From the NCBI GenBank assembly GCA_029862975.1, contig JAOTWP010000004.1, positions 7,392-71,391 on the forward strand: a stretch of 64,000 nt of DNA, in the 5' to 3' direction. The stretch is from Acidobacteriota bacterium. GTDB lineage: Bacteria > Acidobacteriota > Thermoanaerobaculia > Multivoradales > JAHEKO01. Position numbers and translations under genes: made by a program. How positions within the stretch are numbered: the stretch's first letter is position 1; each line of letters starts with the position of its first letter. The notes below the pieces were generated by a model. It ran no database searches and was not told where the DNA came from. It worked only from the letters and a program-made list of their open reading frames with translations. Below are positions 1-17,814 of the stretch, piece by piece.

Positions 1-819
1 AAGGGCCCTCTCCATCGCCCGCATCAGCACCTCGAGCCCCTCGTCGGTGGGATCGCGGAACAGCACCGCGATCTCGGGCGAGCGGATTGCGAGAGCCGCC
101 GGCAGCGTCAGAATGCCGTCCCGCACGTCCTCCTCGCCGCCGCCGCCGAGGGCCACGGCGCCGCGGACGTCGCCGACGTCGTCGCAGCCGTGATAGAGCG
201 TGCCGAGCAGGGCGCCGTAACGCCGCAGCGTGTCGTCGCGGGTCCCGAGGCAGGCGCAGGTCTCGAACATCGAGCCGGTGTCTTCGCCGGCGAGGTGACG
301 CCAGTCCTCGACCCCGAGGGGCTGCCGCCGCAGCCGCCACTGCAGGCATTCGGCCACGCCCAGCCGCTTGAACAGGTCGGAAATGAGCGCGATCGCATAG
401 GGGTCTCGGTGCAGGATCTCGAAGACGTGGGCCGTGAGGTAGCCGCCGGTCATGAGCGCCGGCAGCAAGCCGAATCGGCAGTGCAGGGTGAGCTTGCCTC
501 GTCGATGGCGCGAGCGATCGAGAATGTCGTCGATGATCAACGAGACGTTGTGCACGATCTCGAGTGCCACCGTCGAGCGCAGGAGCTCATCGTCGACCGG
601 CTCCTCGGACATGGCGCGGTGACAGGCAAAGATGGTCACGGGGCGGAAGAACTTGGACTCGCCGAGGAACTGCCAGTCCAGAAGGCTCTGTACCTCGGCG
701 TCGCTCTCGCGGAGGATCTGCGCGATCAACTCCCTGAGCTGGTCCAGCTCGTCCTCGAGATCGAGTGCACCCAGCAAGCGTCTGGAGGTGGCGGCGGCGC
801 TAGCCGGCGCGACCGTCAC
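1..819 (-). CDS. polyprenyl (isoprenyl) diphosphate synthase family protein; 3' end runs off the left window edge
   Basis: Absent from ORF track (no stop in window). My minus-strand translation from GTG at 819 gives ...[25 protein letters not shown]... (first DDxxD + RRG) and ...[12 protein letters not shown]... (second DDxxD). GGAGG lies ~7 nt upstream of the GTG. Confidence 0.8.
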
Positions 820-864
820 GCTTCGCCCTCCCGCAGCACGTCCTGTCGGCCCCGGCCCCGGGCG

Positions 865-1233
865 CTACGGCTTTGCGCGCACCGATCGCTTCGCCTTGGG
901 ACGCGCCGCACCCTTCTTGCCCGACGCCCTCGATTGCTCGGACTTGCCGAGCTCCTCGATGAACCGTTCGGCGGCCTGCCGCGGCAGATCGGTCATCGCG
1001 CGCAGGCTCACGCGACTGGCCTCGCCGATCTCCATGAGGAGGCGATTGGCATCGGACGGATTCCTCCGGATCTCGCCGAGGCGGCTGCCGGCATCTTCGC
1101 TGAACTTGGAGGCTTGCTCCACCCAGGCGCTCCAGAAGTCGATTCCGGCCCTGAAGGCAGCCAGCTGGACTTCGACCACGTCCATCAGGACGTTCTGCAC
1201 ATCGGCGTCGGATGTCGACTTTTTCTGGGCCAT
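865..1233 (-). CDS. small helical protein with Lys/Arg-rich C-terminus (phasin-like by composition only); 'P5' of the unknown operon
   Basis: 122-aa ORF with GC3-rich codons and GGGAG 7 nt upstream of the ATG. N-terminus is amphipathic-helix-like ([33 protein letters not shown]). Tail is [18 protein letters not shown]. No family recognised. Confidence 0.6.
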
Positions 1234-1267
1234 GGTTCACTCCCGGCCGGCGTCGCCGGCCCCTGCT

Positions 1268-1984
1268 TCACCTCTTGCTGGTGCGCGAGGCGCTGCGGCC
1301 GGCGCCCTTCTTGGCCGCCGTCTTCTTGGCCGCCGTCTTCTTGGCTGCCGTCTTCTTGGCCGCCGTCTTCTTGGCGGTTGTTGTCCTGGCCGCAGGCCTC
1401 TTGGGCGTCGTCCGCTTGCGTGTAGCTCTCTTGGCAGTGACCTTCCCGGCCGGCGCCTTCTCGGGGGACACCTCGGCGGCCTGGCTCGCCGTCGCGACAC
1501 CGTGCAAACGCCGCACGACGATGGCAGCCGAGGCTCTGGACACTCCGGGCACCGTGAGTGCGCCGCGATAACCGACCCCGGCCTCGAGCCGCGGGTCGAT
1601 CTTGCCGAACACTCGGACCACCGTCTGCTCGCTCGAACCCAGGCTCACCCGTGCGGGCTCGAACTCGAGCAGCTGCTCGATCTCGTGGCCGTCGGGATCG
1701 ATCAACGGCGAGACCACCACGTCGGCCGCCACCCGTCGGGATGTGTTGTTCTCGACGAGGAAGAAGCCCTGGGCCTCTCGACCGGCCTCGGCTTCGAGCA
1801 CCAGCGCGGCAGCGCGCGGCGCCGCCGGCGGTGTCTCCTCCTCGCCCGCCACGCCTGTTTTGGCGAAGGCGGAGCTCACCTCCTTGAGGTAATCGGCCGA
1901 CAGCCTCACCAGGCCCTGGTAGAAACGCAGGCCGCTTTCGACATTGCGCCGCAGGAGATCGCCGAGATCCGGAACGTCAGCCAT
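1268..1984 (-). CDS. hypothetical protein 'P4': N-terminal helix + beta-sandwich-like core + histone-H1-like KKTAA repeat tail
   Basis: 238-aa ORF whose ATG overlaps the upstream stop by 8 nt (ATGGCTGA). Core ...[26 protein letters not shown]...[10 protein letters not shown]. Tail [27 protein letters not shown]. Confidence 0.7.
1305..1394 (-). repeat. about six tandem 15-bp units (plus-strand gtcttcttggccgcc) encoding the KKTAA repeats of P4
   Basis: Direct reading: cccttcttggccgcc / gtcttcttggccgcc / gtcttcttggctgcc / gtcttcttggccgcc / gtcttcttggcggtt / gttgtcctggccgca. Confidence 0.9.
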
Positions 1985-2558
1985 GAGGGTCTGCCGGGGT
2001 CCCCCGCTCGCGGCAGGAGCGAGGGCAGTAGAAGTGGTCGTACCAGTGATGGATGTAGTCCGGACAGTCGTCGATTTCCACGACGTGGCAACAGGCTCCG
2101 CCCTGGTCGCCGACCGAGACGGTCCACCGCAGGTAGTGCTCCCTGCACCCCCGGACCCAGATCAGGGCTTCGAGCTTCTGGCCCGCGGTGGCGTCGGGCG
2201 CCTTGAGGGTTGCGGTCACCGTGCCCCGCTCCTTCGCCCCCAGCGCCAGACTCGTCGGCTGGATCGACACGCTGCCGGCCGCCGATCCCGCAGCAGAGAC
2301 CTGGTACAAGCGGCCGGTGGCGTCGCAGTTGGTGATCTCGATCTTCAAGGTCGCCACGCTGCCCGGGCAGACTTGGCTCACCACCTCCCCGGCCGACTGC
2401 GGCATCCAGCACGGCTCCGGGATGTCGCAGGAGTTCTGCTGCTCGTTGCCCGTCATGACGGCGAGCAACTCGTTGCCGAGCTGGGCCTGGGCGTCGAGCA
2501 GATTGCGGATCGCGTCGGCCAGGCCCTGCATCGACTCACCGCTCAGAATCGAGTTCAT
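1977..2558 (-). CDS. hypothetical protein 'P3': N-terminal helix, beta-sandwich-like core, Cys/His-dense C-terminus
   Basis: Real start is the internal ATG at 2558 of track ORF 1977..3470, overlapping the upstream stop as ATGA. 193 aa with 10 Cys. Tail [34 protein letters not shown]. Confidence 0.7.
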
Positions 2559-3301
2559 TGTTTCCTCCGGCGCGCGCTCTTTTGCTTGCTCTTTTCGAGA
2601 ACCCGGACCTCGACTCGCTGCTTGGCGTAGTCGAGCGACAAGAGACCGCGGTACAGGCGCCCGCTCACCAGCTTCGCGGGCAGGCGCAGGGTCAGCTCCA
2701 GATCGTGCACGTCTCCCGGCTCCAAGCGCCCCGATCCTCGGCGGATCCGCACCCGGGCGTTGCCGCCGTGACTCTCCGCCAGCTCGTCGAGGAAGCGATC
2801 GATGCGCCGTTCGCCACGCTCGAGCCGGGCCTCGATCACTCTCGAGATCACTTCGTCCATGCCCTTGACCGGAAACAGGCCGAACGCCGAGCTCTCGGGG
2901 ACCTCGACGGCGACGTTGCCCAGGTTGGCGAGCGCGAGGGTCAAGTCGACGCTCGCTCCCGCCTCGGCCTCGATCGAGGTCCGGGAGGGGAAGAACCTGA
3001 GCTGCCGCTCCGGTTGGATCTCGACTACGATCGGCTGGCGCGTCTCGCCGATCTCGGCAGAGCCCCTGTAGGTGCCGGGCGCCATCGTCTTGGGGACGCG
3101 CAGCCTCAGCCGGGTGAGGCCGAGCCCGCGCACCGGGGCGGCGCGGGCCGTAAAGACGTCGCCGACGCGAGAGCCCCGCGGCAGCTCGAGGCTCAGACGC
3201 ACGTCGCCCGACAATCTCGGGTCCAGCTTGACCACCGTCGACAAGGCCCTCGGAGCACCACGGAAATGGATGGTCTCCGGCCTCTGAGCCGTCCTTGCCA
3301 C
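2555..3301 (-). CDS. hypothetical protein 'P2': two beta-sandwich-like (CARDB/NEW3-like pattern) modules, basic C-terminus
   Basis: In-frame GTG at 3301-3299 shares one nt with the upstream TAG (TAGTG). Motifs ASVDLTLALANLGNVAVEVP and LEPGDVHDLELTLRLPAKLVSGRLYRGLLSL. Tail [12 protein letters not shown]. Confidence 0.65.
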   Translation of the reverse strand: MARTAQRPETIHFRGAPRALSTVVKLDPRLSGDVRLSLELPRGSRVGDVFTARAAPVRGLGLTRLRLRVPKTMAPGTYRGSAEIGETRQPIVVEIQPERQLRFFPSRTSIEAEAGASVDLTLALANLGNVAVEVPESSAFGLFPVKGMDEVISRVIEARLERGERRIDRFLDELAESHGGNARVRIRRGSGRLEPGDVHDLELTLRLPAKLVSGRLYRGLLSLDYAKQRVEVRVLEKSKQKSARRRKQ

Positions 3302-3753
3302 TAGCCTTCCTCGAGCCGCAGGACCCCGGCGGGAGCCGTCCCCGGCGGCTGGCTCTGGCTGGACGGCCCACAGACCTCGCACGGGTTGGGACGGTAGGGC
3401 TCGGTGATGATCTGGGCCTCGCCGCAGAGGCGCACCTTGGCCAGCTCCATGCCGAACAGGGAGAGCCCAAGGGCGTAGTTGGCCGGCAGATGGGCGCGGA
3501 CCGAAGGGATCTCCTTCAGCCGGGCGTTGATCTCGAGCGGCCGGATCTCGATCGGGGTAAGCGTCACGGTCAGCGGGTCGACCCCGACCTCGATCTTGTC
3601 GAGCGTATCGACGTGGATGTGGTACTCGGAGGGGATGCCGTCGATCGTCACCGGCCCGACCGCACCGACGCTGGCGACGGTGATCGGAGTCACCGTAATG
3701 GGTGCGACTTCGTCGACGTCGACGTGGTAGACATCAGGCAGCTCGACGCTCAT
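3301..3753 (-). CDS. hypothetical protein 'P1': acidic, V/I/P/T-periodic N-terminal two-thirds, Cys-containing C-terminus
   Basis: 150-aa ORF with GGAGG 6 nt upstream of the ATG. Sequence VYHVDVDEVAPITVTPITVASVGAVGPVTIDGIP...PLTVTLTPIEIRPLEI. No family recognised. Confidence 0.65.
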   Translation of the reverse strand: MSVELPDVYHVDVDEVAPITVTPITVASVGAVGPVTIDGIPSEYHIHVDTLDKIEVGVDPLTVTLTPIEIRPLEINARLKEIPSVRAHLPANYALGLSLFGMELAKVRLCGEAQIITEPYRPNPCEVCGPSSQSQPPGTAPAGVLRLEEG

Positions 3754-3781
3754 GGTGGCCTCCGTGCCTTGTCGGTAGTGC

Positions 3782-3814
3782 GTTTATCTTTTCACCGGCC
3801 TCTGTTTCCGTCAA
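3782..3814 (-). promoter_or_regulatory. weak candidate internal promoter / AT-rich patch upstream of P1
   Basis: Minus strand reads TTGACG (3814-3809), then GATAAA at 3788-3783. The spacer is ~20 nt, so the match is poor. It is the only AT-rich patch in the 107-nt KAS-P1 gap. Confidence 0.2.
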
Positions 3815-3860
3815 GGAAGTCCCGACTCCCAGGCGCCCCTGCCCCCGAAGACCATCGCCG

Positions 3861-5111
3861 TCAGTCATCGAAACGGCCGACCACGAGCACTCCGTTGGTG
3901 CCGCCGAAGCCGAAGCTGCTCGACAGCACCGTGGCCAGGGGAAGCTCCCTCGCTGCCGTCACGAGCGGGAGGTCCGCGACCGCCGGATCGGGCTTCGTGA
4001 CGTTGATCGACGGGGCGACGAAACCGCGCTCGAGCATGCCGATGCAGAAGATCAGCTCGAGTGCCCCGGCGGCGCCGATCGGGTGGCCGGTCATCGACTT
4101 GGTAGAGGAAAAAGGGGGCACACCGCGCCCGAACACCTGGCGCAAGGCCTTGAGCTCAGCGACGTCACCGTGCCGCGTCGAGGTGCCGTGGGTGTTGACA
4201 TAGTCGATCCTCGAAGGCTCGACTTCGGCGTCGTCGAGGGCGAGGCGCATGCAGGCTGCGGCCTGGTCGCCCTCGGGCTCCGGAAGAACGAGGTCGAAGC
4301 CGTCGGAGTTGGCACCGAAGCCGAGAATCTCGGCCCGGATCCTGGCGCCGCGAGCACGGGCGGCCCCGAGCTCCTCCAAGACGACGATGCCGCCGCCGCC
4401 GCCCATCACGAAGCCGTCGCGGCCCTGGTCGAAAGGCCGCGAAGCCTGCTCCGGGACGTCGTTGTAGCTCGTCGACAGAGCAAGGCGCAGGGCCTGGAAC
4501 GCAACCGCGACGAGCTCGCTCACGTCCTCCCCTCCGCCCGCGACCGCCCGGTCGAGCCGGCCCTGGCGGATGAGCTCGAATGCGTGGCCGATGTTGTGGG
4601 CCGAGGTGGCACAAGCCGACGCGATCGAGTAGCTGCGGCCGCGGATCGCAAGCAGGCTCGCCACCGCGGCGCTGGCAGAGCTCGACATGCAGCGCAGGAC
4701 AGTGTACGGGTCGATGCGGCGACTTCTGGCCGAGAGATAGAGCTCGGCCGCGCGCCACACCGAGTCGATGCTGCCGACGCCGCTGCCGACGATGCAGCCG
4801 GTGCGCGGATCGGCGAGCTGGCCCGGCTCGAGGCCGGCATCGGCAACGGCGTCGCGGGCGGCGAGGCAGCAGAACAGAGCCGCGTCGGACATGGCGGGAA
4901 CGAGCTTCTTGGGCAGTCTCGCGGCGGCCTTCTTCTCCTCCAGGTGGTCCACCGCGCCCGCGACCCGACTCTCGAGCCCCAGGTCGGCGCGCCACTCGGT
5001 CATGCGGCGCACGGCGCTCTTGCCGGCTCGCAGCGCCTCCAGAACGGACTCGTACTCATGCCCCAGGCAGGAGACCAGGCCGACGCCGGTGACGACCACG
5101 CGGCGGTTCAC
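3861..5111 (-). CDS. beta-ketoacyl-ACP synthase, KAS I/II (FabF/FabB-like)
   Basis: 416 aa. Cys-His-His triad contexts: SIASACATSAH, YVNTHGTSTRHGD, SMTGHPIGAAG. GTG start overlaps the ACP stop (GTGA). Confidence 0.9.
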   Translation of the reverse strand: MNRRVVVTGVGLVSCLGHEYESVLEALRAGKSAVRRMTEWRADLGLESRVAGAVDHLEEKKAAARLPKKLVPAMSDAALFCCLAARDAVADAGLEPGQLADPRTGCIVGSGVGSIDSVWRAAELYLSARSRRIDPYTVLRCMSSSASAAVASLLAIRGRSYSIASACATSAHNIGHAFELIRQGRLDRAVAGGGEDVSELVAVAFQALRLALSTSYNDVPEQASRPFDQGRDGFVMGGGGGIVVLEELGAARARGARIRAEILGFGANSDGFDLVLPEPEGDQAAACMRLALDDAEVEPSRIDYVNTHGTSTRHGDVAELKALRQVFGRGVPPFSSTKSMTGHPIGAAGALELIFCIGMLERGFVAPSINVTKPDPAVADLPLVTAARELPLATVLSSSFGFGGTNGVLVVGRFDD

Positions 5112-5383
5112 CCCGCGGCGTTCCCTTTCTCGCGGCTCGTCTTGCCACGGACGAGCCCGACCACGTCGCCGACGGTGACGAAGGCCCGCAGCTCCGCGTC
5201 GTCCACGACAATGTCGAACTCGTCCTCGAGATCCATCGCCAGAGTCACCCCTTGTAGCGAACTGAGCCCCAGATCGTCACGCAGTGTCGTGTCGTCGGCG
5301 ACCTTCGCCGGCTCGAGCCTCCGATCCGAGGCTTCGAGCAGCCGCGCGACGACTCTCTCTCTAAGGCCTGCGGTGTCTTGGAT
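5108..5383 (-). CDS. acyl carrier protein, atypical; start codon uncertain (no in-frame ATG/GTG/TTG; ATC at 5383-5381 preceded by AGGAGGGGG)
   Basis: Not in ORF track. My translation: IQDTAGLRERVVARLLEASDRRLEPAKVADDTTLRDDLGLSSLQGVTLAMDLEDEFDIVVDDAELRAFVTVGDVVGLVRGK... This has ACP length and a DLGxxSL-type phosphopantetheine site. Confidence 0.65.
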   Translation of the reverse strand: MQDTAGLRERVVARLLEASDRRLEPAKVADDTTLRDDLGLSSLQGVTLAMDLEDEFDIVVDDAELRAFVTVGDVVGLVRGKTSREKGNAAG

Positions 5384-5868
5384 GACCCCCTCCTGGCGCG
5401 GCGCAAGGACCCCCGTCGGCTCGACGGATCGGGTGTTGCCTTCGGTCCGGCCAGTCTAGCAGCGCCAATCCCGCCGGCGGCCGACGGTCGCCGAGCACGC
5501 CCCCGGCCCGAGAGCGCGATCGTCGGCCACGAAGTCCTCGCCGACCTCGAGACCCACTACGGCTTACGTCGCGAGACGCCCTCGGTGGCTCGGCCGTCGG
5601 GTCCGAACGCGCGCTCTGGAGGCCCGAGTTCTCGCCTCTTCCCTGCTCGGAGCACCTGACCGCGCATCAGCACCAGACCCGAGTCCGCGCCCTGGTCCAC
5701 GAGATCGAGCGCGAGACGGCATCCTCGTTCCCTCTGTGCCCCACCGGCTGAGAGTGGAACTGCGCCCTAGCGCAACGGGGAGCAACGGAGTTTGGGCGTG
5801 TAGTACCGGACCACTTGCCTCCCGTTGTGGCACGCCCTGTAACTGCTTGATTCGAACGGCGAGAGCAA

Positions 5869-5945
5869 TGGTGCGGCTGGGAGGACTCGAACCCCCGACC
5901 TAGAGTTTAGGAAACTCCCGCTCTATCCACCTGAGCTACAGCCGC
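5869..5945 (-). tRNA. tRNA-Arg (anticodon CCT), CCA encoded
   Basis: Reverse complement GCGGCTG-TA-GCTC-AGGTGGATA-GAGC-G-GGAGT-TTCCTAA-ACTCT-AGGTC-GGGGG-TTCGAGT-CCTCC-CAGCCGC-ACCA folds as a cloverleaf. Anticodon loop TTCCTAA. Confidence 0.9.
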
Positions 5946-5960
5946 CCGTGGGACCGGGGA

Positions 5961-6620
5961 TTATACGTCGCCGGCGGGGGTCGGCGGGGGGGGCTGGTGG
6001 TCGCCGGTGCGGTGCAGGAAGCGGTTGACGAGCCAGAAGCTGCCGACCAGCAGGACGACGAAGGCGATCGTCAGGACGTTCAGGTACTTCTCGATAAAGA
6101 GCTTGGCCGGCTCGCCGATCCACCAGATGAGGCCGGCGACGGCGAAGAAGCGGGCGCTGCGGGAGAGGATCGAGGCGAGGACGAAGATCTTGAAGTTGAC
6201 CTCGAAGGTGCCGCCGGCGATGGTGAAGATCTTGTAGGGGATCGGGGTCAGGCCCGCGATGCCCGTCGCCCAGGCGTTGTAGCGGTCGTAGAGCTTCTTC
6301 ACCGCCGCGATCTTGCGCTCCGCGAAGAGGCGGTGCAGCACCGGGCGGCCGCCGGCGTAGCCGATGCCGTAGCCGAGCATCCCGCCGAGGACTGAGGCGA
6401 CGCTCGCGATCGCCGCGAACCACAGCGCCGCCGACGGCCGCACGAGGCAGAGAGCGATCAGCAGGACGTCCGGCGGGATGGGGAAGAAGCTCGACTCGGC
6501 GAAGGCGATCCCGAAGAGCGCCCAGGCGCCGCCGGGGCTGCCGGCGAAGGACTCCACCCAGTCGAGCAGGCCGGCGAGGGTCCCGCTCAGCCAGTGCCAG
6601 AGGTTCTCGAGCATGATCAC
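5961..6620 (-). CDS. DedA/VTT (SNARE-associated) family membrane protein
   Basis: 219 aa, multi-TM. FAESSFFPIPPDVLL and GYGIGYAGGRP motifs are typical of DedA/YqaA. GTG start overlaps the pcm stop (GTGA). Confidence 0.8.
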   Translation of the reverse strand: MIMLENLWHWLSGTLAGLLDWVESFAGSPGGAWALFGIAFAESSFFPIPPDVLLIALCLVRPSAALWFAAIASVASVLGGMLGYGIGYAGGRPVLHRLFAERKIAAVKKLYDRYNAWATGIAGLTPIPYKIFTIAGGTFEVNFKIFVLASILSRSARFFAVAGLIWWIGEPAKLFIEKYLNVLTIAFVVLLVGSFWLVNRFLHRTGDHQPPPPTPAGDV

Positions 6621-7273
6621 TCCTTGTCCCAGCCGTGGCGGCCGACGAGGGGGACGAACCGGACCTCCTCGCCGACCCGCCGCCTGACGGTCTGGGCGAG
6701 CTTGTCGTAGTCGTAGACGACGAGCTGCTGCACGTCGCGGCCGCCCTCGGGGATGACCAGCCGGCCGCCGGGCGCGAGCTGCGCGAGCAGCGGCCGCGGC
6801 GCGGCGGGAGCCCCGGCCGCCACGAGGATCCGGTCGTACGGCGCCGCCTGGGCGAGTCCCAGGGTGCCGTCGAAGGCCTGGACCTTCACGTTGTCGTAGC
6901 CGAGATCGCGCAGGCGGCTGATGGCCTCGCGGGCCAGTCCGGGCACGATCTCCAGGCTGAAGACGCGGCGCGCCAGCTCGCCGAGGATCGCCGTCTGGTA
7001 GCCGGAGCCGGTGCCGATCTCGAGCACGCCGTGCTCGGGCTCGACGGCGAGCAGCTCGGTCATGCGGGCCACGACGGAGGGCTGGGAGATCGTCTGCGCC
7101 TCGCCGATGGGCAGGGCGTGGAGGCTGTAGGCCTGCGAGCGCAGGTGCGGGCGCACGAACCGGTGGCGGGGTACCTTGCCCATGGCCGCCAGCACCCGGG
7201 CGTCGCGGACGCCGAACTCCTTCTCGAGACGGCGCACCATCCGCCGCCGCTGATACGCGAACTCGGAGGCCAC
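6617..7273 (-). CDS. pcm: protein-L-isoaspartate O-methyltransferase
   Basis: C-terminal part of track ORF 6617..7798. GEAQTISQPSVVARMTELL and VLEIGTGSGYQTA motifs. Candidate starts: TTG 7279 (TTGA overlap with the surE stop), GTG 7273, ATG 7240. Confidence 0.85.
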   Translation of the reverse strand: MASEFAYQRRRMVRRLEKEFGVRDARVLAAMGKVPRHRFVRPHLRSQAYSLHALPIGEAQTISQPSVVARMTELLAVEPEHGVLEIGTGSGYQTAILGELARRVFSLEIVPGLAREAISRLRDLGYDNVKVQAFDGTLGLAQAAPYDRILVAAGAPAAPRPLLAQLAPGGRLVIPEGGRDVQQLVVYDYDKLAQTVRRRVGEEVRFVPLVGRHGWDKE

Positions 7274-7275
7274 GA

Positions 7276-8028
7276 TCAACCCACGCTCGTGAGCTGCTCC
7301 TGGAGCCAGCGGTAGGACTCGATGCCCCGGTAGTCCGTCAGATCGAGATGCAGCGGCGTGATCGAGACGTAGCCCTCCGCCACGGCGTCCTGATCCGAGC
7401 CCTCGCTCTCGTCCCACACCGGCTTGCCGGCGATCCAGTAATACTCCCGTCCCTGCGGGTCGAGCTTCTGCACCACCGACTGCTGGTAGCGGCGGCGGCC
7501 GAGCTTGGTGAGCCGGACGCCGTGCGGCTCGGAGGCGGGAAAGTTGACGTTGAGCAGCAGGTCCTCGGGGAGCTCGTTGCGCAGGAGCACCTCGACGAGC
7601 CCGGCCGCGAAGTCGGCGCTGCGCTCGAACGAGAACGACTTCGCGACCTCCTGGCTGAAGGCTACCGAGGGGATGCCCATGAGCGTCCCTTCGAAGGTCG
7701 CGCTGACCGTGCCCGAGTAGGTCACGTCGTCCCCCAGGTTGAGCCCGAAGTTGATTCCCGAGACCACCAGCTCCGGGGGCGTGTCCTTGAGCAGCCACAA
7801 GAGGCCCAGGCTCACGCAGTCCGTGGGCGTGCCGTCGACCGAGTAGACGCCGTCGCCGATCTCGCGCAGGCGCAGGGGGCGATGCAGCGTCAGCGCGTGC
7901 CCCATGGCGCTCTGCTCGCGGTCCGGAGCGACGACGGTCACCTCGGCCAGCGGCCGCAGCCTGGCCGCGAGGAGCTTGATCCCCTCCGAGAACACGCCGT
8001 CGTCGTTGGTCACGAGAATGCGGGTCAC
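7276..8028 (-). CDS. surE: 5'/3'-nucleotidase SurE
   Basis: MTRILVTNDDGVFSEGIKLL N-terminus, 250 aa. Conserved surE-pcm adjacency. Confidence 0.9.
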   Translation of the reverse strand: MTRILVTNDDGVFSEGIKLLAARLRPLAEVTVVAPDREQSAMGHALTLHRPLRLREIGDGVYSVDGTPTDCVSLGLLWLLKDTPPELVVSGINFGLNLGDDVTYSGTVSATFEGTLMGIPSVAFSQEVAKSFSFERSADFAAGLVEVLLRNELPEDLLLNVNFPASEPHGVRLTKLGRRRYQQSVVQKLDPQGREYYWIAGKPVWDESEGSDQDAVAEGYVSITPLHLDLTDYRGIESYRWLQEQLTSVG

Positions 8029-8918
8029 GAGCCGCCTCCCTTTACGTCCCCGCCGGCGGGGAGGTACTTCCCGACGATCGGCGCCAGCCGCTCACGGGCC
8101 GCCGCCGAGACCGCGGCGGGGTCGGAGATCAGCGCGTAGCGCAGGCTCCCGGCCCACGGGCAGGGCGCGGCCGGGTCGATGTCGCGAACGGCCCGGCGCA
8201 CGATGTCCTGCGCCATCGCCGCGTTGCGATGCAGCACCTCGAGCACCCCGACCACCTCGACGTCGTCCTCCTCCTCGTGCCAGCAATCGTAGTCGGTGAC
8301 CATGGCGAGCGTCGCGTAGGACATCTCCGCCTCGCGGGCCAGCTTCGCCTCCTGCAGGTTCGTCATGCCGATGACGTCGACCCCCCACTGCCGGTAGATT
8401 CGCGACTCGGCCCGGGTCGAGAACTGCGGCCCCTCCATGCACAGGTAGGTGCCGCCGTCGTGCGTGGTGGCCCCGGCGCCGCGGGCCGCCGCGAGGAGGA
8501 TCTCGCGCAGCTCTTTGCACACCGGGTCGGCCATCGACACGTGGGCCACGATGCCGTCTCCGAAGAAGGTGTCGGCGCGGTGGCGCGTCCGGTCGAAGAA
8601 CTGGTCGGGCACGACGACGTGGGTCGGCTCGTAGCGGGCCTTCATGGAGCCCACGGCGCTGACCGAGAGCAGCCACTCGACCCCGAGCACCTTGAACCCG
8701 TAGACGTTCGCCCGGAAGTTGAGCTCCGAGGGCATGAGGCGATGGCCGCGGCCGTGCCGGGCCAGGAACGCCACCCGGCGCCCCTCGAGATCGCCGATGA
8801 CGTAGGGATCCGAGGGCGCGCCGAACGGCGTCTCGATCACCCGCTCGTCGACGATCTCGAGGTCCCCCATCGCGTAGAGGCCGCTGCCGCCGATCACTCC
8901 GATCTTCACCTCGCTCAC
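8025..8918 (-). CDS. mtnP: S-methyl-5'-thioadenosine phosphorylase
   Basis: 297 aa. IGVIGGSGLY, FLARHGRGH and VIGMTNLQEAKLAREAEMSYA are typical of the MTAP/PNP family. Confidence 0.85.
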   Translation of the reverse strand: MSEVKIGVIGGSGLYAMGDLEIVDERVIETPFGAPSDPYVIGDLEGRRVAFLARHGRGHRLMPSELNFRANVYGFKVLGVEWLLSVSAVGSMKARYEPTHVVVPDQFFDRTRHRADTFFGDGIVAHVSMADPVCKELREILLAAARGAGATTHDGGTYLCMEGPQFSTRAESRIYRQWGVDVIGMTNLQEAKLAREAEMSYATLAMVTDYDCWHEEEDDVEVVGVLEVLHRNAAMAQDIVRRAVRDIDPAAPCPWAGSLRYALISDPAAVSAAARERLAPIVGKYLPAGGDVKGGGS

Positions 8919-9907
8919 GGACTCCCCTCCCCCCTCCGGGCCTCGATCGCGGAGCGGATCTCGAGCGCCGTGGCCAGTGCCCTTCTCCCCTGGACGCCGT
9001 CGACCAGGGGAACGCTCTCGCCGCGACAGGCGGCGAGAAAGTGGCGCAGCTCGACCTTCAGCGGCTCCGCCGGCTCCACCGGCAGGACCAGGGGCCGGAT
9101 CGCCCGGTCGCCGCCGTCTCCCACCAGCTCGTAGCCCTGAATCGACTGCGCGTGATAGTCGAGCGAGTAGTAGCTGCGGTGCAGGAAGACCCGCAGCCGC
9201 CGGGTCTGCTCGGCCGAGACCCGCGAGGCGGTGAGATTGGCGACGCAGCCGGATTCGAACTCGAGGCGGACGTTGGCGATGTCGATGCGCTCGGAGAGCA
9301 CCCGGACCCCGGTCGCCCGGACCTCGCGGATCGCCGAACGGTCGATCGCCTGCAGGATCTGCAGGTCGTGGATCATGAGGTCGAGAACGACGTCGACGTC
9401 GAGGCTGCGGGGCTTGAAGACGGCCATGCGCTCGATCTCGACGTAGCCCGGCAGCTCCCCCACGGCCATCAGGGCCTGGACCGCCGGGTTGTAGAACTCG
9501 ACGTGCCCCACGGCGAGCACCCGGTCGCCGGCCGCGGCGACGAGGGCGTCCGCCTCCCCGAGACCGGGCGCGATCGGCTTCTCCACGAGCACGTGGAGCC
9601 CGGCCGCGAGCAGGGGCATCGCCACGGCGTGATGGTCGACCGTGGGCACGGCGACGACGACCGCCTCCGCCCGCCCGGCCAGCTCCGCGGCCGTGGGCAG
9701 CGCGACGGTTCCGTGCTCCGCGGCCAGCTGCCGAGCCACGTCGGCGCGCAGGTCGACGATGCCGACGAGGTCCGCCTCGGGCAGCTCCGCGAGGATCCTC
9801 ACGTGGTGCCGTCCCAGCGCCCCGGTACCGACGACGCCGACCCGCAGCGGCGCCACCGACGCGGCTGCTACCGCCTCGGCTGCCACGGACTCAGCTGCCA
9901 CCGCCAC
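8915..9907 (-). CDS. Gfo/Idh/MocA family NAD-dependent oxidoreductase (GnnA-like position in the lpx cluster)
   Basis: LRVGVVGTGALGRHH Rossmann N-terminus and VLVEKPIA motif. The start may instead be the GTG at 9856, which would remove the Ala-rich extension and the 17-nt overlap with lpxA. Confidence 0.75.
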   Translation of the reverse strand: MAVAAESVAAEAVAAASVAPLRVGVVGTGALGRHHVRILAELPEADLVGIVDLRADVARQLAAEHGTVALPTAAELAGRAEAVVVAVPTVDHHAVAMPLLAAGLHVLVEKPIAPGLGEADALVAAAGDRVLAVGHVEFYNPAVQALMAVGELPGYVEIERMAVFKPRSLDVDVVLDLMIHDLQILQAIDRSAIREVRATGVRVLSERIDIANVRLEFESGCVANLTASRVSAEQTRRLRVFLHRSYYSLDYHAQSIQGYELVGDGGDRAIRPLVLPVEPAEPLKVELRHFLAACRGESVPLVDGVQGRRALATALEIRSAIEARRGEGSP

Positions 9908-12229: not shown

Positions 12230-12796
12230 CTAGCCTTCCGGGAGCGCGTTGAAGCGCTCCAGGACCTTGTCCGTGATGTCGGCCCCGGGCGCGGCGAACA
12301 GGAGGCCGCTCTCCTCGAACTTGTTGAAGATCAGGGTGAAGCCCTCGCTCTCCCCGATCTCCTGGATCAGGGGCATGACCCGGTCCTCGATCGTCTTGAA
12401 CTCCTCCGTCTGCAGCTCCTCGATCTCGCGCCGCGCATCGTCCTGCGCCCGGCGCAGCTCGATCGCCCGCCGCTGCAGGTCGGCCTCGATCTCCTGCTGC
12501 TTGTCTTCGGACAGCGAGAGCCGCCTCGCCTCGAGGTCTTGCTCGATCGCCACGGCCGCGTCCCCCTGGGCCTCGAGCGCGTCCTGCTTCGCCTTTGCCG
12601 CCACCCGCAGCCGCTCGATCGCCGCGCGGCCCGACTCCGACTCGGTGAGAATCCGCCGCACGTCGATGACGGCGACCTTGCTGGGCCCGGAGGAGAACTC
12701 CTGCGCCGGCAGCGCCCCCGCTCCCCACACGCCGAGCCACAAGACCGCGGCGATGACGGCGACACGGCCCTGGGCCGGTCGTTCGATTGCGTTCAT
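12230..12796 (-). CDS. skp: OmpH/Skp family periplasmic chaperone
   Basis: ATG at 12796, signal-like [21 protein letters not shown], and a coiled, charged body. Sits between bamA and lpxD, as is conserved. Confidence 0.8.
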
Positions 12797-12902
12797 GACT
12801 TCCAGTTCCTCCAGTGGTTTTCCAGTGTTGCTCGAAGCGTTTCCCCGGGCGGCGATCCCAGACCGGTTCCCGGCATGGTATCCCCTCGCGAGCCGGCGAT
12901 CC

Positions 12903-15281
12903 TCAGAAGCCGGCCCCGACGCTGAATCGGAACGAGTCGAAGCGGTCGTCGGCGAAGGCATCGAGATTCTGCGCCCAGATGAACCGCAGCGGCGCCCCGA
13001 ACGCCGCGATGTTGACGCGCAGCTCGAAGCCCGACGTCCGCCGCAGATCCTCCAACGAGATCGTCTGGTCCTTGGCGAACACGTTGGCGGCGTCGAGGAA
13101 GGCGAGCAGCCGGAACGGCCCGCCGAGCAGCAGCTGATACTCGAAGTTCAGCTGCAGGAAGGAGTCGCCGCCGATCGGGAAGCCCTGCTGGTCGACCCGC
13201 GTCCTGCCGTCCTTCTCGCGCACCCAGATGGAGCGGAACCGGTGCCCGCGGAGCGTCGACTCGCCGCCCAGGTAGAAGCGGTCGTTGTAGAAGAGGTCTT
13301 CGCCGCCGAAGGGCTCGATGAAGCCCGTCTCCACGTTGACCGCGGCCACCGTCGTGAAGCGGGTGCTCGTCACCGGCTTGAACAGGCTGAAGGCGGCGCG
13401 CGGCCGCACGAAGTTCGAGCTGCCGCCGAGGACGCCCCCCGCGTAGTCGACGCTGGCCTGGTAGCGCATCCCGCGGGTCGGCGTGAGGATGCTGTCGCGC
13501 CGATCGAGGCCGTAGAGGAGCCGCATGGTCGAGACGTCGCGGGAGAACGACTGCGTCACGAGCTCGTTCAGGCCGTCGAACTGGCTGCGCTCGTCGATCG
13601 AATCGAAGCGGGTGTAGCTGGCGGAGAGGGTCGTGAACAGCGTGAGGCGGCGCCCGTAGGTCAGGGTTCCGCCCTTCGTGTCCTGGAAGAAGTTCTGGCC
13701 GTCGAGCAGCTCGTAGTCGAGCTTGCGCTGGAAGACCTGCACGCCCAGGTTCTGCGGCCGGTCGAGCCACCAGGGAATGCTGTAGGACAGGTCGAAGACG
13801 TCCTGCCGGCGGCCCGACTGGAGCGAGACGGCGACCGTCTCGCCGCGGCCCAGGAAGTTCCTCGTCCGGAACTGGAGCTGCCCGAAGAAGCCGTCGACCT
13901 CGCTGAAGCCGCCGCCGAAGAGGAGCTCCGTCCGGGACCCCTCCTCGCCCTTGAGGAGCAAGTCCACGCTCTTCTTCTCGCTGTCGAAGTCGAAGGCCAC
14001 CGGCTCGTCTTCGTTGATCTTGAAGAACTCGAGCTGGCGAATCCGCAGGATCGAGTTGCGCAGGGCGCCGGAGCTCAGGATCCGGCCTTCCTGCACTCCC
14101 AGCTCGCGCCGGATCACCTTGTCCTTCGTCTTGACGTTGCCCTGGAACTCGATCCGCCCCACCCGGTACTGATCGCCCTCGTCGACCTTGACGATCAGAT
14201 CGGCCACCTCGCCGTCGCGCTCGACGAGCTCGGAATCGACGCGGGCGAAGAGGAAGCCCGTGTTGCGGTAGACCTCGCCGACGGCCTCGATGCCCTTGTC
14301 GATGACGCTCGAGCGCAGCCAGCCGCCCTTGGGCTTCTCGAACTGGCCCAGGAGCAGCTCGTCGCTGAACTTCTCGTTGCCCTGGATGGTGATCTCGCCC
14401 AGCTTCCAGCGCTGACCCTCCTCCACGGGGACCGTGATCACCATGCGGCGCTGCTGCTCCTTGGAGGTCGCGGCCTCCGGCCGCATCGCCTTGATCTCGA
14501 TCTTGGGATCGCCGATCACGAGGTTCTTGTAGCCCGCCTTCCGGTAGACGGTGCGCACGTTGTCGAGATCCGTCTCGAACTTCGCTTCCTCGAACACGTC
14601 CTTCGAGAGCAGCTTGGTGACGAAGCCGCTCTCCTTCGTCTTCTTCATGGCCCAGCGCAGGCGCCCGTCGGAGAACACCGTGTTGCCCTCGAAGTCGATG
14701 TCCTCGATCCGGACCTTGTCGCCCTCGTCGACGGTGAAGGTGACCCGCTTGTCGCCGCTGAGATCCTCGTCGACGACGTACTCGGCCTCGGCCAGCCGGT
14801 AGCCGTGCTCGGCGTAGAGCTCCTCGATCGCCGCCTTCAGCCGGTAGAGCTCGCCCTCGCTCAGCGGGTCGCCCTCGCGCGCCCGGATCGCGTCACGGGT
14901 GATCCGGTCGTTGATGTCCGAGCGCTGGAGCCGCTTGAGACCCTGGTACTCGACGGCTCCGAGAGTCGGCCGCTCGACGATCGCCACGCGCATGCTCACG
15001 CCGCCGGGCGCCGCCTCCGTCGCGATCGTGATGTCGTCGATCAGATCGCGCGACCACAGCAGGTGCACCTTCGCGTTGAGCGACTCCGCGGTCACCGACG
15101 CGCCCTCCTCGAGCCCGAGGTAGAAGCGCAGGGTCTGCTCGCTCAAGGTCTTCAGGCCCTCGAACGCGAGCTCCACGACCGGCTGCCCCTCGTAGCTCTG
15201 GGCGGCCGCGGGAGCGGCCGGGGCCAGCGTGCCGATGAGGCAGGCCGCGGCCAAAGCTGCACTCGCGGTGAAGGTCTTCAT
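12903..15281 (-). CDS. bamA: outer membrane protein assembly factor BamA
   Basis: POTRA-like repeats then a C-terminal beta-barrel ending ...FRFSVGAGF. Start chosen at MKTFTASAALAAACLIG (signal peptide) rather than the track ATG at 15335. Confidence 0.9.
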   Translation of the reverse strand: MKTFTASAALAAACLIGTLAPAAPAAAQSYEGQPVVELAFEGLKTLSEQTLRFYLGLEEGASVTAESLNAKVHLLWSRDLIDDITIATEAAPGGVSMRVAIVERPTLGAVEYQGLKRLQRSDINDRITRDAIRAREGDPLSEGELYRLKAAIEELYAEHGYRLAEAEYVVDEDLSGDKRVTFTVDEGDKVRIEDIDFEGNTVFSDGRLRWAMKKTKESGFVTKLLSKDVFEEAKFETDLDNVRTVYRKAGYKNLVIGDPKIEIKAMRPEAATSKEQQRRMVITVPVEEGQRWKLGEITIQGNEKFSDELLLGQFEKPKGGWLRSSVIDKGIEAVGEVYRNTGFLFARVDSELVERDGEVADLIVKVDEGDQYRVGRIEFQGNVKTKDKVIRRELGVQEGRILSSGALRNSILRIRQLEFFKINEDEPVAFDFDSEKKSVDLLLKGEEGSRTELLFGGGFSEVDGFFGQLQFRTRNFLGRGETVAVSLQSGRRQDVFDLSYSIPWWLDRPQNLGVQVFQRKLDYELLDGQNFFQDTKGGTLTYGRRLTLFTTLSASYTRFDSIDERSQFDGLNELVTQSFSRDVSTMRLLYGLDRRDSILTPTRGMRYQASVDYAGGVLGGSSNFVRPRAAFSLFKPVTSTRFTTVAAVNVETGFIEPFGGEDLFYNDRFYLGGESTLRGHRFRSIWVREKDGRTRVDQQGFPIGGDSFLQLNFEYQLLLGGPFRLLAFLDAANVFAKDQTISLEDLRRTSGFELRVNIAAFGAPLRFIWAQNLDAFADDRFDSFRFSVGAGF

Positions 15282-15377
15282 TCGGGTCGGCTCGGTCGGA
15301 TCGATGAACTCCGGCTGGCGGGCGGGTGCCTGCAAGAACCGGTCCAGATTCCGCGACGGGAGGATACCTGAAGATCG

Positions 15378-17814
<2,437 letters not shown>

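Follow-up and report, generated by a model that had tools for sequence, protein, structure and literature searches.

Positions 1-5383 of a 64,000-nt window (the window being the whole stretch of DNA analysed) encode, all on the minus strand, an acyl carrier protein (ACP), a beta-ketoacyl-ACP synthase (KAS), five proteins here called P1 to P5, and a polyprenyl synthase. It was found that these genes form two units, an ACP-KAS pair and a P1-led array that runs past the window edge, and not the single eight-gene operon proposed in an earlier reading of the sequence alone (the sequence-only reading), which had taken ACP and KAS as members of the co-transcribed system. The P1 to P4 genes form a conserved core that is joined to different partner genes in different lineages. 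Judged from sequence and gene context, P1 to P4 may assemble themselves in the cytoplasm into a scaffold or coat that serves hydrophobic products (lipids or polymers; in the window, a saturated polyprenyl); I give this reading slightly less than an even chance. It is the best-supported one because the core is soluble and translationally coupled, shows little conservation of a catalytic type, contains immunoglobulin (Ig)-like domains of a protein-docking kind, and has its own promoter.

Is this gene order found elsewhere? The conservation was assessed in 80 genome loci encoding a P1 homologue, of which the 74 that extend 2.3 kb or more beyond P1 were regarded as informative. In 66 of these 74 loci, the 3.2 kb after P1 contain P2, P3, and P4 in the order of the window, and six of the eight exceptions have diverged proteins at the same positions. 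The carriers span at least 11 phyla. According to the record titles, the hosts are Acidobacteriota, Actinomycetota, Gemmatimonadota, Chloroflexota, Dormibacterota, Fidelibacterota, Binatota, Eisenbacteria, Planctomycetota, and Alpha-, Gamma-, and 'Delta'-proteobacteria, and the cultured carriers are Cellulomonas sp. Root930, McL0617, and ICMP 17802 and Roseobacter cerasinus. Co-occurrence of P1 to P4, on which the sequence-only reading had made its proposal depend, is thus near-universal across the loci, usually beside a polyprenyl synthase.

None of P1 to P5 scored over threshold in Pfam, NCBIfam, PHROG, or PADLOC, which bears out the earlier failure to place them in a named family; with neither a PADLOC nor a PHROG match, they do not belong to the anti-phage defence systems or phage families covered there. 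Profile searches of PDB sequences with P1, P2, P4, and P5 gave nothing meaningful, and a tblastn search of the PLSDB plasmids with P3 gave no match. Full-text literature searches, whose coverage is incomplete, returned no description of these proteins or of the cluster. Since these membership tests were negative and no description was found, the P1-P4 module appears to lie outside the known kinds of system, and I infer its function from sequence and context. A hydropathy scan found no transmembrane-like segment in P1 to P5, in agreement with the soluble proteins expected earlier. The charges are split: P1 and P3 are acidic, while P2, P4, and P5 are basic.

The 107-nt gap between KAS and P1 contains a sigma-70-type promoter composed of TTGACG (3814-3809), a 17-nt spacer, and the extended -10 element TGa-AAAGAT, whose hexamer lies at 3791-3786. 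Of 80 sequences (the window and 79 loci), 56 have TTGAC between -150 and +30 of P1, compared with 10.7% of random 180-nt windows. Most of these sites lie at -49 to -82 from P1, and a TGnGATGAT-like -10 element follows about 17 nt on. The spacer GGCCGGTG of the P1 promoter is common to the window and deltaproteobacterial loci. The promoter is kept even where P1 sits midway in a bigger cluster, and its presence inside larger clusters implies expression that is separate and probably high. A simple promoter/terminator scanner made no call at this site, which emerged only from the cross-locus comparison, and the same scanner found no terminator-like site in the KAS-P1 gap. Because of the conserved promoter in this gap, P1 is considered to head its own transcription unit, while read-through transcription from KAS into P1 may occur.

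All 394 homologues of P1 carry the label hypothetical, and no Pfam domain was found in any of them. A profile search among 1.84 billion representatives returned 242 clusters at 50% identity, nearly all of 110-190 aa. With an isoelectric point of 4.6 and a grand average of hydropathy of +0.16, P1 is the most hydrophobic protein of the set. Its N-terminus is made of variable short beta-strand repeats, and its C-terminal core is highly conserved (IPxIRxHLPADFxVGLSLLGxELAxVRLCGEAQVITEPYRPNPCExCG); C110, C125, and C128 as well as several Glu residues are invariant in the alignment. The AlphaFold model has a long beta-hairpin at residues 86-116 only and a predicted local distance difference test (pLDDT) score of 54 overall, which is too poor for a structure search. 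Four long P1 'fusions' (P0269, P0307, P0329, and P0279) seem to be high-GC open reading frames (ORFs) that were frame-shifted or mis-called, and were not used, except for a ketosynthase (KS) fragment considered below.

The sequence-only reading had seen a beta-sandwich-like signature of the CARDB/NEW3 type in P2, P3, and P4. The sandwich is real, without a match at family level: no CARDB, NEW3, or Ig model of Pfam scored over its gathering cutoff, and the fold itself is a two-sheet Ig fold. P3, which has 236 homologues, was modelled by AlphaFold with a pLDDT of 83 (over 90 for residues 50-150) as a helix (9-36) followed by strands (54-164). A Foldseek search of the PDB with this model returned PapD-like chaperones, the VAP MSP domain, and ASH/HYDIN domains. 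The P3 model superposes on them with a Foldseek probability of 1.0 and, for VAP MSP, a target-normalised TM-score of 0.63-0.64 at a root-mean-square deviation of about 2.4-2.5 A. In contrast, the sequence identity is 9-19%, and no Pfam membership supports the relationship (20.1 bits with Ig_VWA7, cutoff 27). PapD-like, MSP, and ASH domains act in protein-protein docking and polymerisation. P3 differs from them as a cytoplasmic bacterial protein with an extra N-terminal helix and with Cys/His motifs, and there is no usher or pilin context. Its sandwich is flanked by invariant Cys/His motifs including GC..HYLRW, and the invariant residues are C50, C138, D164, H171, D174, H175, and C182. Because of these motifs, P3 likely carries a metal site.

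P4 consists of an N-terminal helix, a variable linker, an Ig-like domain ending in IPVVVRRR, and a Lys-rich tail like that of histone H1. It has no Pfam Ig match, and its tail resembles HC2/H1-like models under threshold. The Ig domain of P4 is related to P3 (hhalign Prob 84%, E 8e-6) and to the C-terminal half of P2 (Prob 89%, E 2e-6), while a direct profile comparison of P3 and P2 was not significant (Prob 4%), so that the link runs via P4 only. From the P3 model and these profile comparisons for P2 and P4, the three proteins are assigned a common PapD/MSP-like Ig sandwich. P2 itself has two beta-sandwich-like regions, the second with an N-x-G-N motif and an inserted helical segment; its best Pfam match, NPCBM_assoc, is under threshold (E 0.17). 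The invariant residues of P2 in the alignment are Met1, Gly, Pro, and Asn only, which indicates a structural role, and the residues conserved in P4 are likewise limited to Gly, Pro, Asn, and Arg.

The tail of P4 is encoded by a 15-nt tandem repeat (1307-1375, 4.6 copies). There are five AKKTA units in the window and three in strain L001, one of two 99%-identical contigs that were found; thus the copy number varies between near-identical strains. Lys/Arg-rich tails had been noted earlier on P2, P4, and P5. Across the families the P4 tail is common but variable, the C-terminus of P5 (KRxRxARAK) is conserved in the alignment, and the tail of P2 is not conserved.

P5 is a helical protein whose PDB relatives are designed helical bundles only. 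The N-terminal helices of P3, P4, and P5 had been called phasin-like, and the helices of P3 and P4 and the helical nature of P5 were indeed found, without phasin homology. None of P3, P4, and P5 belongs to PF09361 (Phasin_2). P5 as a phasin was ruled out by three results: no Phasin_2 or other Pfam match was found in 24 members of the P5 family, comparison of the P5 profile with the Phasin_2 domain of protein P0318 by hhalign gave a Prob of 0.1%, and all the P5 homologues are named hypothetical and none phasin. The similarity between the N-terminal helices of P5 and P4 is not significant.

What accompanies the core? One of three modules (types A, B, and C) or a polyhydroxyalkanoate (PHA) synthase (PhaC) was found in 72 of the 80 loci, and a polyketide synthase (PKS) in one more. 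Type A (31 loci including the window) comprises P5, the polyprenyl synthase, and a geranylgeranyl-reductase (GGR) family protein. In the window array the reductase gene lies past the window edge, where the sequence-only reading could not see it, and was revealed by the 99%-identical contig L001; this contig continues past window position 1 with the rest of the synthase and a 496-aa flavin adenine dinucleotide (FAD) protein, after which the strand changes. Type A orthologues beside the core are 53-70% (synthase) and 52-66% (reductase) identical. In most type A loci P5 is on the opposite strand, after the reductase. The closest relatives of the window cluster, from Planctomycetota, Fidelibacterota, and a gammaproteobacterium (L003, L006, and L089), have the same seven genes and no ACP/KAS.

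The window synthase scores 96.3 bits with PF00348 (cutoff 27), and both DDxxD motifs (DDILD and DDVGD) are conserved across 31 synthase orthologues, as in trans-polyprenyl diphosphate synthases. The closest solved structure is the Thermotoga maritima octaprenyl diphosphate synthase (E 3e-20), and nonaprenyl synthases are also among the nearest. The reductase scores 196.9 bits with TIGR02032 (cutoff 158.8) and conserves VVGGGPAGS (the GxGxxG motif for FAD) and PREKVCGDF, as expected for this family. All the equivalog models for MenJ, ChlP, and DGGGPL reductase score far under their cutoffs, and the closest solved structure is the Thermoplasma digeranylgeranylglycerophospholipid reductase. About 100 aa at the C-terminus of the reductase (residues ~400-480; W...W.S...DP.WH..W..D...KW) form a conserved Trp-rich extension to the usual GGR fold, which may be an interface- or partner-binding segment.

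Type B (28 loci) has a different polyprenyl synthase, four unassigned proteins Q1 to Q4, and an S-adenosylmethionine (SAM) methyltransferase, to which some loci add IspH (LytB) and a reductase. Q1 is weakly similar to P4 in one locus (L053). Q3 has weak CrtC/DUF2804 signals, and its PDB match to CrtC (E 0.036) is under significance. The weak SCP2 signal of Q4 is also under significance, and the Q4 profile did not recover SCP2 structures. In Q4 (L085:9355-9933 and homologues), a variable linker leads to the conserved C-terminal peptide ExxLLxRLDLLP, a layout like that of a cargo-loading or docking peptide. Type C (8 loci) has a 409-aa protein and an SRPBCC protein. The 409-aa protein (L084:12486-13712 and homologues) is the hallmark of type C and is 58-89% identical among Gammaproteobacteria and Gemmatimonadota. 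It contains a large number of invariant His, Asp, Cys, and Trp residues and gave no Pfam, NCBIfam, or PDB match; from its sequence it looks like an uncharacterised enzyme. A polyprenyl synthase near the Thiotrichales type C clusters resembles a housekeeping IspB and was not counted as system-specific.

In five alphaproteobacterial loci from three families, a PHA synthase gene lies right after P4 on the same strand, and in one of them (L058) the ATG of PhaC directly follows the stop codon of P4. These proteins are PhaC members (PhaC_N E 9e-54). Their lipase box is S-A-C-A-G-G instead of G-x-C-x-G-G, in which the Cys is kept, as are WDNDSTR and SGHVQS with the Asp and His. The subfamily scores are 557-590 bits against the class I cutoff of 855 and 437-460 against the class II cutoff of 623, nearer to class II than to class I; being under both cutoffs, they are assigned to a divergent subfamily. 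In an Acidobacteriota metagenome-assembled genome (MAG; L013), a type I PKS with KS-AT-DH domains (12456-16849) starts 46 nt after P4; it is apparently frame-shifted into two ORFs, and no polyprenyl synthase is nearby. An in-frame fusion of the P1 core with Phasin_2 (E 2e-16) was found at L086:306-1145, and a second phasin-like fragment precedes it. It is known from one metagenome contig of 1.9 kb, on which an in-frame stop is not followed by a start codon in the P1 part. The fusion may be a pseudogene or an assembly artefact and is treated as a hint only for these reasons. Taken together, the partner genes share the making or binding of water-insoluble chains, namely polyprenyl, polyester, polyketide, and lipid-transfer folds.

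How might a scaffold or coat work? The P1-P2-P3-P4-P5-synthase-reductase operon would be transcribed from the promoter upstream of P1, and P1 to P4, made in coupled and roughly stoichiometric amounts, would assemble into a cytoplasmic multi-protein scaffold or coat. P1, which is small, hydrophobic, and beta-rich, would be the abundant building block, while P2, P3, and P4, as paralogous Ig-sandwich proteins with N-terminal helices, would be adaptors. A metal, probably bound by the Cys/His clusters of P1 and P3, would lock the assembly, and the basic tails of P4 and P5 may bind an anionic partner, such as the nucleoid or phospholipid or diphosphate head groups. The assembly would bind or enclose a hydrophobic product made on site by the linked synthase. 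In the window the linked synthase would make a polyprenyl of medium or long chain length, which the reductase would saturate, and in other lineages the same core would serve a PKS, a PHA synthase, or a second route to polyprenyls. The analysis shows the gene structure, its conservation and modularity, the fold class of P3, and the lack of homology to known families, and from these the assembly, lipid binding, and the nature of the cargo are inferred.

A wider version of this proposal is doubtful, although it deserves consideration: P1 to P4 could be the coat or scaffold of an unrecognised class of bacterial inclusions, a portable four-protein kit placed on various hydrophobic-polymer synthases, whose cargo in the window organism and in most of the carrying Acidobacteriota, Actinomycetota, and Gemmatimonadota would be a bulk isoprenoid (saturated or methoxylated polyprenyl). 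This would be a polyprenyl storage body in bacteria, which is not known to exist. The sequence-only reading had arrived at an inclusion or scaffold by analogy with phasins. The idea finds independent, if limited, support in the PhaC genes after P4 and the single P1::Phasin_2 fusion, while its arguments from ACP/KAS and from phasin homology of P5 have to be dropped.

Several points weigh against a scaffold or coat. The AlphaFold model of P1 is poor, and self-assembly is deduced from sequence and gene context only. The invariant Cys/His clusters of P1 and P3 suit catalysis no less than a structural metal site. The phasin fusion was found on one 1.9-kb contig and its P1 part lacks a start codon, and the PhaC-linked loci are just 5 of 80 and belong to one class. 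Some loci (L021 and L108) have no recognisable lipid gene nearby. The Thiotrichales type C synthase looks like a housekeeping IspB, so that not every synthase adjacency is meaningful, and the assignments of Q4 to SCP2 and of Q3 to CrtC are under significance.

These Cys/His clusters lead to the first alternative, in which P1 to P4 are a new metallo-enzyme complex acting on polyprenyl diphosphate or another activated chain by coupling, cyclisation, or release; its catalytic metal or Fe-S sites would be made of the Cys/His residues, and substrate binding would fall to the Ig domains. The invariant residues of P1 (three Cys and Glu) and of P3 (Cys, His, and Asp) would suit it, no enzyme consuming polyprenyl diphosphate (UbiA-type transferase or terpene synthase) was seen in the clusters, and GGR, the methyltransferase, and the CrtC-like protein are tailoring enzymes typical of biosynthetic clusters. 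However, the core is tied to chemically unrelated synthases for polyprenyl, polyester, and polyketide, which are hard to reconcile with one reaction. Moreover, P2 and P4 have no conserved residues of a catalytic type, and a separate strong promoter for P1-P4 within the cluster suggests structural amounts. I consider this alternative unlikely.

It is also conceivable, with a lower probability again, that P1 to P4 are a soluble lipid chaperone or carrier, in which the Ig proteins carry prenyl or acyl chains, or else a system for protein lipidation, with P1 itself modified on a conserved Cys. In both cases they would transport hydrophobic molecules within the cytoplasm and not build an inclusion. 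Ig-like sandwiches bind lipids and prenyl groups in RhoGDI, PDE-delta, and ML domains. None of these is among the top structural matches of P3, while the VAP MSP domains, which dock lipid-transfer proteins, are among its structural neighbours. Candidate lipid-transfer proteins exist in type B (the weakly SCP2-like Q4 with its ExxLLxRLDLLP peptide) and type C (SRPBCC), but the SCP2 assignment is not significant. The three invariant Cys residues near the C-terminus of P1 could be lipidation sites, but no protein prenyl- or acyltransferase is present in the clusters. PHA synthase makes a bulk polymer, and linkage to it suits a carrier poorly.

Do ACP and KAS belong to the system after all? If all the genes were one operon of eight (really nine) genes, ACP and KAS would give the fatty-acyl part and the synthase the isoprenoid part of one lipid packaged by P1 to P5. 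All the genes are on the same strand, the KAS-P1 gap is just 107 nt without a terminator-like site, and KS-type enzymes recur near P1-P4, as the PKS of L013 and as the KS fragment upstream of P1 in P0269. However, a tblastn search with all the window proteins against the 80 P1-encoding genome loci found ACP/KAS beside P1 only in two near-identical contigs, and the other loci, including the closest type A clusters, lack the pair. Conversely, relatives of KAS (44-72% identity) were found in 16 metagenome loci, and ACP is directly upstream of KAS in nine of them, which are all the loci where ACP was detected. P1-P5, the synthase, and the reductase were found in none of the 16, even with 4-6 kb of downstream sequence. 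In one of these loci (L091) the gene order is ACP (with an ATG start), KAS, and a FabZ-like protein. Since the other P1 loci lack ACP/KAS, the KAS loci lack P1-P5, and a conserved promoter lies in the gap, the ACP-KAS pair is separate from the P1 system, and on this comparative evidence it is an independently conserved, ordinary-looking pair for acyl-chain elongation. A single operon is therefore improbable.

Both proteins of the pair were identified by their domains. ACP matches PF00550 with 37.6 bits (cutoff 20.8) and has the phosphopantetheine Ser within DLGLSSLQ, while all the NCBIfam ACP models score under their cutoffs. No ATG, GTG, or TTG was found upstream of this Ser. An ATC (5381-5383) preceded by AGGAGG aligns exactly with the ATG of the L091 homologue; translation may start at this ATC or the start codon may have been lost, a loss that also speaks against one operon, and the production of the protein is uncertain. 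A 1-nt indel relative to strain L001 lies about 50 nt upstream of ACP (window 5400-5460, minus strand), which is compatible with non-coding sequence there; it led the gene caller to lengthen the L001 ACP to 129 aa. KAS matches PF00109 (146 bits), PF02801 (119 bits), and NF005589 (394 bits, cutoff 387), and the FabB and FabF equivalog models are under their cutoffs. The active-site motifs SACATS, NTHGTST, and GHPIGAAG, containing the Cys-His-His triad, were read in the translation, as expected for a KAS I/II enzyme.

Finally, that P1 to P4 are a mobile four-gene cassette unrelated to lipids (e.g., for stress response, metal handling, or the cytoskeleton) with the synthases as chance or hitch-hiking neighbours is very improbable: the core does move between phyla with changing accessory genes, and some loci have no lipid gene nearby, but 72 of 80 loci have one of the four recurrent modules and one more a PKS, the junctions to the modules are as tight as the abutting P4 stop and PhaC start codons of L058, and the type A synthase and GGR orthologues (52-70% identical across phyla) stand specifically beside the core.

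Which known systems does a scaffold or coat of P1 to P4 resemble? PhaP, PhaF, and PhaM of PHA granules (carbonosomes) are, like P1 to P5, small soluble proteins encoded beside a polymer synthase, with helical N-terminal parts. PhaF and PhaM have H1-like tails that tether the granules to the nucleoid. The Lys/Ala-rich, histone-H1-like tail of P4 and the conserved basic C-terminus of P5 are similar, and PHA synthase directly after the core in five loci and the one P1::Phasin_2 fusion add to the likeness. On the other hand, P1 to P5 have no sequence homology to Phasin_2 or any phasin family, the core is made of four coupled conserved proteins comprising Ig sandwiches, a beta-hairpin protein, and Cys/His clusters, and most of the P1-P4 clusters are tied to isoprenoid and not polyester synthesis.

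Family 2 encapsulins with polyprenyl-transferase or terpene-cyclase cargo are similar in that a putative assembly is genetically coupled to an isoprenoid enzyme. The encapsulin cargo model NF041169 is the best NCBIfam match of both cluster polyprenyl synthases, and the conserved terminal peptides of Q4 and P5 after flexible linkers resemble cargo-loading peptides. However, the synthases score far under the cutoff of 450 bits (78.9 bits for the window and 164.6 bits for type B), no locus has a gene for an HK97-fold shell, and P1 to P4 have no PHROG or capsid similarity; they are not family 2 encapsulins. The combination of a PF00348 synthase and a TIGR02032 flavoprotein encoded together recalls archaeal-type synthesis of saturated isoprenoids and mycobacterial MenJ, but the clusters lack geranylgeranylglyceryl phosphate (GGGP) and digeranylgeranylglyceryl phosphate (DGGGP) synthases, a UbiA-type transferase, and quinone genes, and the reductase has the Trp-rich extension. 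As a loose functional analogy only, P1 may be compared with the gas vesicle protein GvpA, which is likewise small, very hydrophobic, and highly conserved with a beta-hairpin core, and which has its own strong promoter before accessory genes and a horizontal spread. In contrast, P1 has no sequence similarity to GvpA or Pfam match, there are no GvpN/GvpF-type genes, and P1 has Cys clusters and N-terminal repeats.

Five to nine consecutive family-less proteins keep their order in at least 11 phyla, among them the abundant soil and sediment groups Acidobacteriota, Actinomycetota, and Gemmatimonadota. Conservation of such proteins on this scale implies that a large part of common bacterial cell biology is unexplained. 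The presence of the core beside polyprenyl synthases, PKS, or PHA synthase points to a general machine for water-insoluble polymers. If so, it would represent a new type of bacterial inclusion, might be a bacterial source of the saturated regular isoprenoids found in sediments, and could supply new parts for engineered storage of terpenoids or bioplastics. The cultured carriers (the Cellulomonas strains and Roseobacter cerasinus) make the scaffold idea directly testable.

Table 1. Features of positions 1-5383 of the window, the reductase gene just past its edge, and the PHA synthase genes of other loci
Feature	Coordinates	Strand	Description
ACP	5108-5383	minus	91 aa, ATC start; PF00550 match
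KAS	3861-5111	minus	416 aa, beta-ketoacyl-ACP synthase I/II-like; PF00109 and PF02801
P1 promoter	3786-3814	minus	sigma-70-type, inside the 107-nt KAS-P1 gap
P1	3301-3753	minus	150 aa, hallmark of the P1-P4 system
P2	2555-3301	minus	248 aa, basic, GTG start at 3301
P3	1977-2558	minus	193 aa, acidic, helix, Ig sandwich, and Cys/His motifs
P4	1268-1984	minus	238 aa, basic, helix-linker-Ig and Lys-rich tail
P5	865-1233	minus	122 aa, helical, basic, accessory of type A module
Polyprenyl synthase	1-819	minus	GTG at 819; 314 aa in full, first 273 aa inside the window
Geranylgeranyl-reductase family gene	L001:13846-15336, just past window position 1		496 aa, TIGR02032
PHA synthases after P4	L058:12236-14095; L044:12239-14023; L035:4721-6556; L050:5579-7372; L027:10962-11117		

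The gene array and junctions of the sequence-only reading hold when the coordinates (Table 1) are re-derived on the minus strand. ACP and KAS share a GTGA overlap (5108-5111), by which KAS is translationally coupled to ACP. P1 and P2 overlap in TAGTG (3299-3303), in which the GTG start of P2 sits at 3301 and not at 3303. P2 and P3 overlap in ATGA (2555-2558), and P3 and P4 overlap by 8 nt (1977-1984). The 34-nt gap between P4 and P5 contains a GGCCGG-N5-CCGGCC hairpin (1245-1261) of modest, not unusual stability (-19.7 kcal/mol, z -1.7) and without a U tract; it was rejected as a terminator. A 45-nt gap with GGGAGGG separates P5 from the polyprenyl synthase. The G+C content of the window is about 70%.

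An Acidobacteriota MAG (locus tags OES32_012xx) encodes proteins that match P1, P3, and P5 at 100% identity. An Rfam scan of window positions 1-7000 gave a tRNA as its sole match: tRNA-Arg(CCT) (5869-5945, minus strand), which is located between DedA and ACP and delimits the ACP-KAS unit on its upstream side. The genes further upstream, away from the operon (5961-9907 and L001:1-7794), encode DedA, pcm, surE, methylthioadenosine (MTA) phosphorylase, a Gfo/Idh/MocA oxidoreductase, and lpxA-fabZ-lpxD-ompH-bamA. They are housekeeping genes with no evident tie to the operon and point to a diderm host.

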